Source: Saccostrea cucullata (lineage: Eukaryota). Taken from it: 64,000 nt of DNA. The DNA is taken from contig NW_026933830.1 of the NCBI RefSeq assembly GCF_032062105.1, positions 310,001 through 374,000 of the forward strand. Direction: 5' to 3'. This document shows, piece by piece, positions 49,801 to 52,800 of this stretch. The notes under the pieces were generated by a model that worked only from the letters and a program-made list of their open reading frames with translations, had not been told where the DNA came from and made no database searches. How positions within the stretch are numbered: position 1 is the first letter of the stretch; each line of letters begins with the position of its first letter. Made by a program: the position numbers and the translations under genes.

Positions 49801-52800
49801 TAACCTTTAATCCTTGACTGAAGTCCAGCCTATTATCGATAGTTAACTAGTATGATGTCAAACTGAGATCAGAAACCATTGGTTTGAAGCAGTCCTGACT
49901 ATTGGACATATGACATTTCTATTATCACTGTTCATTATTCCCCATAACTCTGCCCAAGTTTGTCAACAGTTGGTTAAGTCCGGACTACTTCAAATCAGAC
50001 AAGTTGTAATCGAACAACCCTTCTGACAAGTTTGTCTTAGTTAATGTTGTTAAATTTTTAATCATTAACAGGACAAAGAATACTTTAGTTTTGATTTTGT
50101 GACATGTCTGTCAGAAGGCTGTGTTCCGCTAGCGACCGCAGCGACAGGACCAGGGCGCGCGCAGCACGGGGTGATGGTAGAGAAGGAATTTCTTTATATA
50201 GAGAAAATTTATAATTTAGATTTTTTTTTCTTTTTTTGTTCTGAAAAAGATGTCAATTTTGTTAGCACTGAGACTTTTTTTTCCAGATTTTATAGGATTT
50301 TTATTTGAGACTACATACACATGTAGCATACAATACCTCCAATTTACCACTAGAACATCAAATTTTTCTGGCAATAATTACCATATAGAGTCATACCAGT
50401 TGTATACAGCAGACATCCCTGGCACGGAGGCGTGGCACCTCGTGTACTATTACAGAAATTATAAAGAAAACGCTCAGATTAATGCCAAAGTAAGTGGAAA
50501 TTAGTAACAAAAGAAAAACCAGGTTATGTCAAAACAAAACAAGATTCAATTATACAACATTTCATATCCTTTTTTTAGTGAAGATTTTAATTTCTTCACA
50601 TATTTTTTATCTATGCATATAATAAATTCTAGTCAAACTCTAAAAACTTATTTCTTCATGAAATTCTTCAAAATAAAGCTAAAACACTGAAGACACAAAT
50701 GACTTTCTACATATAATTTGCAATATAAATACATTTCAAAACATTTCAATATCCTGGAGGGACCCTGAGAACATGACATAGCATGAGACACAGAAAGAGT
50801 AAGAAGAATGAGGGCTTGTATTGAAATGTTTTGCTGCTTCATGTTGGTTGCCTCTTATCGCCAGCTGCATTCAATAGCTAAGAAGATGAACGTAACATTG
50901 AGTTATCGTTTAATTTTTTTGGCAAATACTCTTCTTAAAATTATGTCAGTCAGTACATGATCAATTTTTGTTTTCAATGTGAGTCACATCTTCTTAACTA
51001 ATCACACATCTAAATGGAAAGAAAATTGACACAAAAGACTTTCATTTTGCAAATCATTTGCCACAAATTGTTTTTCCTTTTTTTTTTAATTCACAGATTC
51101 ATGTTATTATATGACCTAAAACTCTACAAAATTTTTGGCCATTTGCAAAATGAAACGACTTCAACATTTCCTCCATGAGAGGTTTACGAATGAAAGTCAT
51201 TTGTATCTACATGTCACAAAAGAACACTGAGAGAACTAAGGCGTCGGATCAGCTGTAGAGTCTCTATTTATAGCAATGATGCAATCACTACCTTTGCCTC
51301 GTCCAGTCTTCCCAAAGCTTTCAGCAGATTTCCCAAGTCACTCCGCACACAGTAGAGATCCTGGAAAGATAAAACAACTGTTACTGAAAGGTCTGGACAC
51401 AATAATACAGGGCAAAACAACTGTTACTGAAAGGTCTGGACACAAATATACAGGGCTCGGACCTAAGCAACATTCAATATTTTACTGTAGATTTGTGATA
51501 TTTACAAAAATTCTATACTGTACTCTGTAGAGCATTAAACTGTAATGTTGAGTACTGATATGATCAAACATTTTATTGTAATGTACAGTGGTGATTCTTG
51601 TTTTCTCTGTTATGTAATGTAGTGATATAACATACTGGGTTGTACTGTAGCGCTGTGACGTAAGCCTGTACGGCTTGCTCCATGTCTCCGGCGGCTACCA
51701 GGGCGGCTGCCAGGTTGATGTAACCATCTATGAAGTCCGGCTTTAGTCTGACGGCGTGCCGGTAATTCTCTAGAGCTTCCTGTAGTTGTCCTCGCTCCTT
51801 GAACACATTTCCTAGATTGGAGTACGCCTCCGCTAGCATGGGGTTTTGTTTGATGGCAAGCTGGCTGAAGTATGCTGACCTATATCATAATGCAAGAACA
51901 GAAGTTTAGTCCCATGTTCACTGCATTTTTGTGCAATTGTTTTATTCTTTCAGTATCAAAAATATAACAGCAATTACCATTGAAGCTCACTCACAGCATT
52001 TTATAGTTCAACACTGCATAACATTTGTTTAATCTAATGACTTTAAGCTACATGTGTCCGTCTCATACCTTTCTAGGCACCTACACTGGAAGTGTATGGA
52101 GCTAAGGAGAGCAGTATCCAGTGTTTTTTTAATCTAATGACTGTAACCTAGCCGTGTCTGTCTCCTACCTTTCTAGGCGCCTACACTGGAAGTGTATGGA
52201 GCTAAGGAGAGTAGTATCCACGCGTTTTTTTTAATTTAATGACTATAACCTAGCTGTGTCTGTCTCCTACCTTTCTAGGCGCCTACACTGGAAGTGTATG
52301 GAGCTGAGGAGAGTAGTATCCACGCGTTTTTTTTTAATTTAATGACTATAACCTAGCTGTGTCTGTCTCCTACCTTTCTAGGCGCCTACACTGGAAGTGT
52401 ATGGAGCTGAGGAGAGTAGTATCCACGTGTTTATTTAATTTAATGACTATAATCTAGCTGTGTCTGTCTCCTACCTTTCTAGGCGCCTACACTGGAAGTG
52501 TATGGAGCTGAGGAAAGTAGTGTATCCACGTGTTTATTTAATTTAATGACTATAACCTAGCTGTGTCTGTCTCCTACCTTTCTAGGCACCTACACTGGAA
52601 GTGTATGGAGCTGAGGAGAGTAGTATCCACGTGTTTATTTAATTTAATGACTATAACCTAGCTGTGTCTGTCTCCTACCTTTCTAGGCGCCTACACTGGA
52701 AGTGTATGGAGCTGAGGAGAGTAGTATCCACGTGTTTATTTAATTTAATGACTATAACCTAGCTGTGTCTCTCTCCTACCTTTCTAGGCGCCTACACTGG

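Follow-up and report, generated by a model that had tools for sequence, protein, structure and literature searches.

The question raised by this locus is whether the splicing switch in intron 4 of vertebrate OGT has a counterpart in a mollusc. In vertebrates, this intron holds a silencer and a decoy or poison exon between two detained introns (excerpts of PMC5588854, PMC6097662, PMC7261177, PMC7373989, PMC12017769), an element described also in excerpts of PMC4901358, PMC12894984 and PMC10108035 and, in the available sections of PMC5588854 and PMC7373989, traced down to jawless fish and said to be lacking in Drosophila. An earlier note on this DNA had proposed that the intron 4 switch is conserved, or convergently present, in molluscs; of this proposal the cassette exon, the retention and the conservation among oysters stand, while a long alignment to vertebrates was not found.

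The window, that is the whole stretch of 64,000 nucleotides from Saccostrea cucullata that was analysed, carries an OGT gene on the minus strand, the first coding exon of which lies at 53751 to 53727. Two exons frame the intron under study:

51292 to 51360, minus strand: OGT exon 4, 69 nt, ending in phase 0
49519 to 49635, minus strand: OGT exon 5, 117 nt

Intron 4 (51291 to 49636, minus strand, 1656 nt) is single-copy, with one match in the 1.17 Gb assembly, and was rightly called the longest OGT intron as far as the coding region is concerned, with intron 1 at about 580 nt, intron 2 at about 1115 nt and the intron at 47725 to 48720 at about 996 nt. The last of these is filled by a repeat of about 880 nt (47790 to 48690), present in at least 40 genomic copies with 88 to 95% identity. 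An ORF at 59161 to 58865, which starts like an exon 1 and has a donor cluster at 59125, was considered as OGT exon 1; intron 1 would then have been the longest. The true first exon at 53751 rules it out as the main first exon. In intron 2, at 52024 to 53068, the 3' end of exon 2 is repeated in tandem together with its donor, in about four copies of 72 nt and about eight of 101 nt; each copy provides an alternative donor, and the array may reflect a genuine expansion or an error of assembly. A 147-nt tandem array lies upstream of the gene (55428 to 56509). The first residue of exon 5 (49635 to 49633) is Thr in the window; it is Ala in all 21 loci that have both intron 4 sequence and exon 5, as well as in the seven spliced ones.

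Within intron 4, the branch-point-like TACTAAT (50506 to 50500), the acceptor AG (50448 to 50447) and the donors after 50397, 50382, 50348 and 50337 that the earlier note had read are all present on the minus strand:

50382 to 50446, minus strand: cassette exon, 65 nt, frameshifting, with a stop at the exon 5 junction and ATG as its last three bases
50378 to 50386, minus strand: used donor, identical in nine of nine positions, in register, to the vertebrate decoy donor in locus L055
50391 to 50399, minus strand: donor-like GTATGA, no joint listed
50342 to 50350, minus strand: donor-like GTAAAT, no joint listed, not enriched in other animals
50329 to 50338, minus strand: donor-like motif AG/GTATTGTA (the slash marks the splice position), no joint listed, recurring in intron 4 of other animals
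50478 to 50506, minus strand: two candidate branch-point-like sites for the cassette, from sequence

Between TACTAAT and the acceptor, 54 nt further downstream, there is another AG, and a closer branch-point-like candidate is found at 50482 to 50478. Translation confirms that the 50- and 65-nt forms shift the frame and meet a stop right at the junction with exon 5, completed in the window by the first base of exon 5, and that the 99- and 110-nt forms have an in-frame internal stop. In the 65-nt form the premature stop is located 116 nt upstream of the next junction, beyond the 50 nt that mark a poison exon. The cluster of four donors was discarded as evidence by itself, as a scan with a matrix from 15 OGT donors, requiring four sites at least as good as the weakest of these within 61 nt, finds 14 equal clusters in the 64 kb window (4 minus, 10 plus).

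Evidence for use of the cassette comes from RNA of a close relative, reads of which are mostly 95 to 99% alike to the window (about 95% identical) and not from its species, in unstranded libraries; 24 runs were listed, 20 of them with about 0.3 of the words, and seven (X1, X2, X4, X5 and X21 to X23) supplied the evidence. In three raw oligo-dT runs of one study, with joints listed from three reads upwards, exon 4 is joined to the acceptor at 50446 (50446/51292) by 30, 18 and 29 reads and donor 50382 to exon 5 by 25, 19 and 21 reads, with 10, 14 and 10 reads for the joint that skips from exon 4 to exon 5; cassette inclusion amounts to 0.73, 0.57 and 0.71, respectively. No joint of donors 50397, 50348 or 50337 reaches three reads in these runs, so that of the four donors seen in the sequence only 50382 is backed by RNA joints. 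Read depth relative to exon 3 is 0.31, 0.30 and 0.22 in the downstream half of intron 4, 0.12, 0.05 and 0.05 in the upstream half and 0.02, 0.03 and 0 in intron 3, with the caveat that long introns are more often caught unspliced. The two halves are:

50447 to 51291, minus strand: intron 4a, upstream half, 845 nt, retained at 5 to 12% of exon 3 depth
49636 to 50381, minus strand: intron 4b, downstream half, 746 nt, retained at 22 to 31% of exon 3 depth

Contigs of four further studies (X1, X2, X4 and X5, with RNA status recorded only for X2) also cover intron 4; those of X1 contain the upstream joint 50446/51292, and those of X2, X4 and X5 break at 50448, as expected from use of that acceptor. 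Among the joints listed, these contigs have neither a cassette-to-exon 5 joint nor a break at 50382, and majority inclusion holds for one study only. The junction and retention check across intron 4 that the earlier note had asked for is thus positive for both cassette joints and retention in the relative.

Could all this be splicing noise, or carry-over of pre-mRNA or DNA in a long intron without function? The libraries are unstranded, donor clusters of this kind are common by chance, and reads also cover a second long OGT intron, the one at 47725 to 48720, which is the only other well-covered one. Noise would, however, hardly produce two precise joints in majority use or leave 4b far above intron 3, and the second covered intron was rejected as a retained intron, its coverage being explained by the high-copy repeat with at least 40 genomic copies that fills it (40 scored of 302 candidate copies).

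Conservation among oysters weighs further against noise, as it exceeds that of the coding exons and as the same exon is found in two more oysters. The conserved part is:

50232 to 50448, minus strand: cassette plus first 150 nt of 4b, one difference in 217 nt to a contig piece of the relative

Elsewhere the relative diverges by about 4.4% in the rest of intron 4 and by 2.9% in the covered exons, and one difference in 217 nt is fewer than expected from either (Poisson test, P=0.0008 for the intron comparison and 0.014 for the exon comparison). Of the N-terminal 155 OGT residues, 154 are identical to a protein named Magallana gigas, and two proteins with the M. gigas N-terminus have a homologous cassette peptide right after exon 4, one of them entering exon 5 in the shifted frame and the other entering intron 4b with a read-through peptide nearly identical to that of the window. 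Another oyster possesses the same pair of proteins, cassette-to-exon 5 and 4b read-through. The cassette length deduced from the peptides is 67 and 68 nt in these two other oysters compared to 65 nt in the window, and the frameshift is retained in all three despite the changes in length. That the cassette is real and conserved is considered practically certain; the noise reading is largely refuted by the joints in the relative together with the cassette in other oysters, and is given very little weight.

The preferred reading, to which a probability of about 0.62 is assigned, is that the cassette is a poison exon which likely diverts transcripts from full-length OGT, probably as part of O-GlcNAc feedback, and which probably descends from the vertebrate decoy element. 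Of its parts, control of OGT by unproductive splicing appears highly probable, and a response of the cassette to O-GlcNAc, judged by analogy, rather probable. Joints of exon 4 with the cassette outnumber those with exon 5 in the relative, and retention of 4b is far above that of 4a or intron 3. Joining of exon 4 to the cassette would be the fast, committing step and joining of the cassette to exon 5 the slow one, which may be held back by the neighbouring non-productive donor-like sites, above all the conserved AG/GTATTG, and possibly also by a folded, GCGC-flanked domain in 4b. RNA containing 4b would stay nuclear and the fully spliced cassette form would enter nonsense-mediated decay, so that only skipping would yield enzyme. 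By analogy with the system in PMC7261177 (excerpts), high O-GlcNAc would promote inclusion and low O-GlcNAc skipping.

The main tension in this scheme is the abundance of the included form, as 57 to 73% inclusion at steady state is high for a target of nonsense-mediated decay, and this leaves room for a rival in which the terminal ATG of the cassette, in frame with exon 5, serves as a start codon. Inclusion would then lead, by re-initiation, to a short OGT of about 860 residues without the first TPR repeats, and re-initiation would also shield the RNA from decay. The ATG is kept in the three oysters, in scallop-like, mussel, presumably lamprey-like and fish models and in the human decoy, and stop and ATG overlap at the junction in the window and in one other oyster. 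Among 20 short models that begin before exon 5, Met directly precedes this exon in 12 (three scallop-like, six of a mussel cluster, one fish and two which we take to be lamprey-like from a partly legible name) and not in the eight from echinoderm, gastropod, crab and one other cluster. Yet every ATG at the end of a cassette is necessarily in frame when the next exon is in phase 0, and exons commonly have ATG before a donor; the overlap is lost in the Magallana-like form, where the upstream frame closes eight codons beyond the ATG. The upstream ORF of about 185 codons also counts against the rival, since re-initiation is usually poor after an ORF of this length, and the short isoforms in databases are automatic longest-ORF calls. 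The closest known product is human mOGT, a 9-TPR isoform from intron 4 (excerpts of PMC4901358), which is alike in that a short ORF possibly starting just before exon 5 would keep the catalytic domain; mOGT, however, has a leader of its own and its start lies within the intron, 150 nt from the 3' end, whereas the oyster cassette ends in a bare ATG, and the same excerpts describe mOGT as neither conserved nor detectable, which speaks against a comparable protein. The start-codon reading is considered quite unlikely.

With respect to the elements that would slow the second step under the poison-exon reading, the motif of the fourth donor was examined in 43 other non-redundant intron 4 sequences, left after removal of 10 duplicates and short pieces. 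Ten of the 43 contain AGGTATTG, compared to a shuffle mean of 1.0 (0 of 200 shuffles reach 10) and to none in 46 kb of control introns; this was one of four donor motifs tested, after a sighting in two loci, and of the other three only TGGTATGA is mildly raised (4 vs 1.2). The 10-letter form of the fourth-donor motif is found at four loci of three lineages, and in an unbiased count, window included, GTATTGT is the top strand-biased 7-mer (12 vs 0). GCGC is likewise frequent in intron 4 (262 vs 141; 52 vs 53.5 in control introns), while YGCY, a muscleblind-type motif, is not enriched there (877 vs 928). The six GCGC of the window's intron 4 all fall into two blocks of 4b, which flank a predicted fold:

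50120 to 50170, minus strand: GC-rich block 1, three GCGC
49685 to 49730, minus strand: GC-rich block 2, three GCGC
49733 to 50126, minus strand: predicted folded RNA domain between the GC-rich blocks, helices of 11 to 14 bp

Pairing of the two blocks with each other was considered and is not predicted. The folded domain has a z of -4.1, for a segment picked after the helices had been seen, compared to -0.5 for a control in 4a, and among the differences listed to the relative one of 22 falls into the 100 helix bases, with pairing kept (P=0.02). Folding of 4b elsewhere is mixed, with z of -2.7 or below in some 300-nt segment in four of 10 introns (10 shuffles each). The predicted 4b fold is a lead, not a result.

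Intron 4 was followed into other animals through metagenome loci with OGT exon 3, of which the best 80 of 165 were used; 64 reach exon 4, and two pairs among the loci are duplicates. In these best 80 of 165, GT directly follows exon 4 in 37 of 37 DNA-type loci. Another 27 loci are RNA-like, i.e. without intron 3 and with the frame open upstream; seven are cleanly spliced, 15 run into intron 4, three carry a stop-containing insert alone (74, 145 and 170 nt) and two an insert plus the downstream intron, which amounts to 20 of 27 contigs with intron 4 sequence kept or a stop-containing piece inserted. L007, L036, L050 and L062 keep intron 4 and have an uninterrupted frame between exon 5 and the stop; the pairs L061/L062 and L069/L050 each combine a spliced with an unspliced form, with identical protein ends. 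The gastropod-like L006 is identical to an Aplysia protein in 930 of 1004 residues, and a cuttlefish model has a peptide inserted at the end of exon 4. Among 120 OGT proteins of 99 to 315 residues, 93 depart from the OGT sequence directly after exon 4, 59 going on with Val as in read-through of GT and 34 with another tail; four end at exon 4, four enter exon 5 and 19 do not match the exon 4 pattern. These counts are supportive only, as the query is itself such a product and some of the records are gene-model errors. As separate observations, two short blocks are all that is kept in intron 4 of the related loci L044, L063, L067, L070, L072 and L077, each with a donor-like site at its end (AG/GTAT.. 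and ATG/GTATG), and in the ant-like L039 the tail of the truncated insect protein P0057 maps to intron 4 from position 2086, after an AG, and so marks a cassette.

At the level of alignment, the comparison suggested by the earlier note holds across oysters, and a lenient alignment of the cassette region to seven lophotrochozoan-like introns yields nothing beyond shuffles. By BLAST the intron of the window has no long alignment to 57 other intron 4 sequences (best E 0.11), a protein search with the oyster cassette tail gave no candidate among cluster representatives, and no look-alike stretches were found in the other genomes compared. These results are in line with a second rival, in which a poison exon under selection was acquired separately by bivalves, or repeatedly among animals, within a long intron of old age, and takes its cue not from O-GlcNAc but from another signal (stress, tissue or general splicing load): alignable sequence ends with the oysters, cassette lengths and ends vary widely among invertebrate contigs (74 to 170 nt), and the available text of PMC5588854 gives Drosophila as without an ISS-like element. 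A single origin is nevertheless the simpler account of the same intron, the three-part layout, the in-register identity of the donor and intron-4-specific motifs across phyla, and independent origin is regarded as unlikely, if less so than the start-codon exon.

One link to vertebrates is the in-register donor. The human decoy donor is ATG/GTAA, as known from a morpholino (excerpts of PMC7373989), and the stretch is present in the vertebrate locus L055, where the decoy measures 145 nt, within the published range of 143 to 153 nt, and contains a stop. The best match of the L055 decoy in the oyster intron is the nine of nine positions across the used donor, and a further match lies near the start of the cassette:

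50430 to 50440, minus strand: 11-nt stretch, 10 of 11 identical to the vertebrate decoy exon, collinear, weak alone

The two matches score 18 and 17, which is ordinary for a 1.6 kb intron, as 80% of 148 control segments reach 18; it is the register of the donor match that counts, not the score, and the register was noticed after the fact. Arthropod-like L026 (insert positions 55 to 70) and L036 (intron 4 positions 401 to 418) have stretches of 16 and 18 nt in common with the vertebrate decoy, the former with an uncorrected P of 0.019 and the latter overlapping the segment matched by the oyster cassette. The Met directly before exon 5 in 12 of the 20 short models would fit shared descent, and its absence from the other eight counts against it. 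No ATG is present at the RNA-defined cassette ends of the four loci L004, L024, L026 and L033 either, and ATGGTA was dropped as a general signature of intron 4, being not enriched overall (18 vs 15.2). Several small common features favour shared descent over convergence, without proof, and homology of the oyster cassette with the vertebrate decoy is, from sequence comparison, somewhat favoured.

Compared to vertebrate OGT intron 4, the oyster intron is alike in gene and position, between the 69-nt exon 4 and exon 5, in a small stop-introducing cassette between two retained half-introns, in conservation above background (here within oysters), in several donor-like sites and in the donor context ATG/GTAA, and SFSWAP-like and OGA genes are both present in the oyster genome. 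The SFSWAP-like domain occurs twice (G000 C20220 and C10070), in equal pieces that are possibly uncollapsed haplotypes; the mechanism of SFSWAP at the OGT intron is called unclear in excerpts of PMC12017769. On the other hand, the vertebrate decoy is 143 to 153 nt long and the oyster cassette 65 nt, the stop arises by frameshift at the junction in the oyster and lies inside the exon in the vertebrate decoy, retention is mainly on the downstream half in the oyster, and no ultraconserved alignable block is common to both. Inclusion differs as well, since the cassette is in most spliced reads of the three runs, while the human decoy is in only a small share of mature RNA (excerpts of PMC12017769). 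Strict decoy exons, in the available sections of PMC6097662 and PMC12017769, are rarely found in mature RNA and have several used, closely spaced splice sites; with 57 to 73% inclusion in the three runs of one study, albeit not visible in the contigs of the four other studies, the cassette is not rare in this sense. In its behaviour the element comes closer to a poison exon that is frequently included, followed by an intron that is slow to be removed, than to a rarely spliced decoy. Comparable as well are the decoy of SNRNP70 intron 7 (excerpts of PMC7373989), with a short cassette of 60/72 nt, alternative donors and mainly downstream retention, and the poison exons of SR proteins (cited in available parts of PMC7261177); SNRNP70 and SR proteins are, however, RNA-binding and can act on their own transcripts, whereas OGT is an enzyme, so that any feedback would be indirect.

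The literature search, with most subscription papers outside its coverage, found no report of an OGT cassette in a mollusc or another invertebrate. The locus likely holds a mostly-included variant of an ancient poison-exon and detained-intron switch, one that is likely much older than vertebrates, with its O-GlcNAc response in the oyster proposed by analogy. Ultraconservation of the vertebrate element prevents its important bases from being told apart by comparing vertebrates; a counterpart in a mollusc, hardly similar any more except for a few short features, would single these out as the first candidates for mutation, and the oyster would supply enough of the poison form for it to be studied. 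A bolder version, slightly less likely still than the start-codon reading it includes, would place the switch in the bilaterian ancestor with a minimal code of an ATG/GTAA donor, a dead donor AG/GTATTG downstream of it and a GCGC-flanked fold, the terminal ATG making the cassette a start-codon exon and O-GlcNAc-driven inclusion swapping in a short, TPR-poor enzyme. If this were true, a short enzyme would replace full-length OGT, rather than message being only lost, in bivalves and possibly in vertebrates. In any case, a mollusc counterpart of the vertebrate element would push the feedback of O-GlcNAc on splicing back to early animals.
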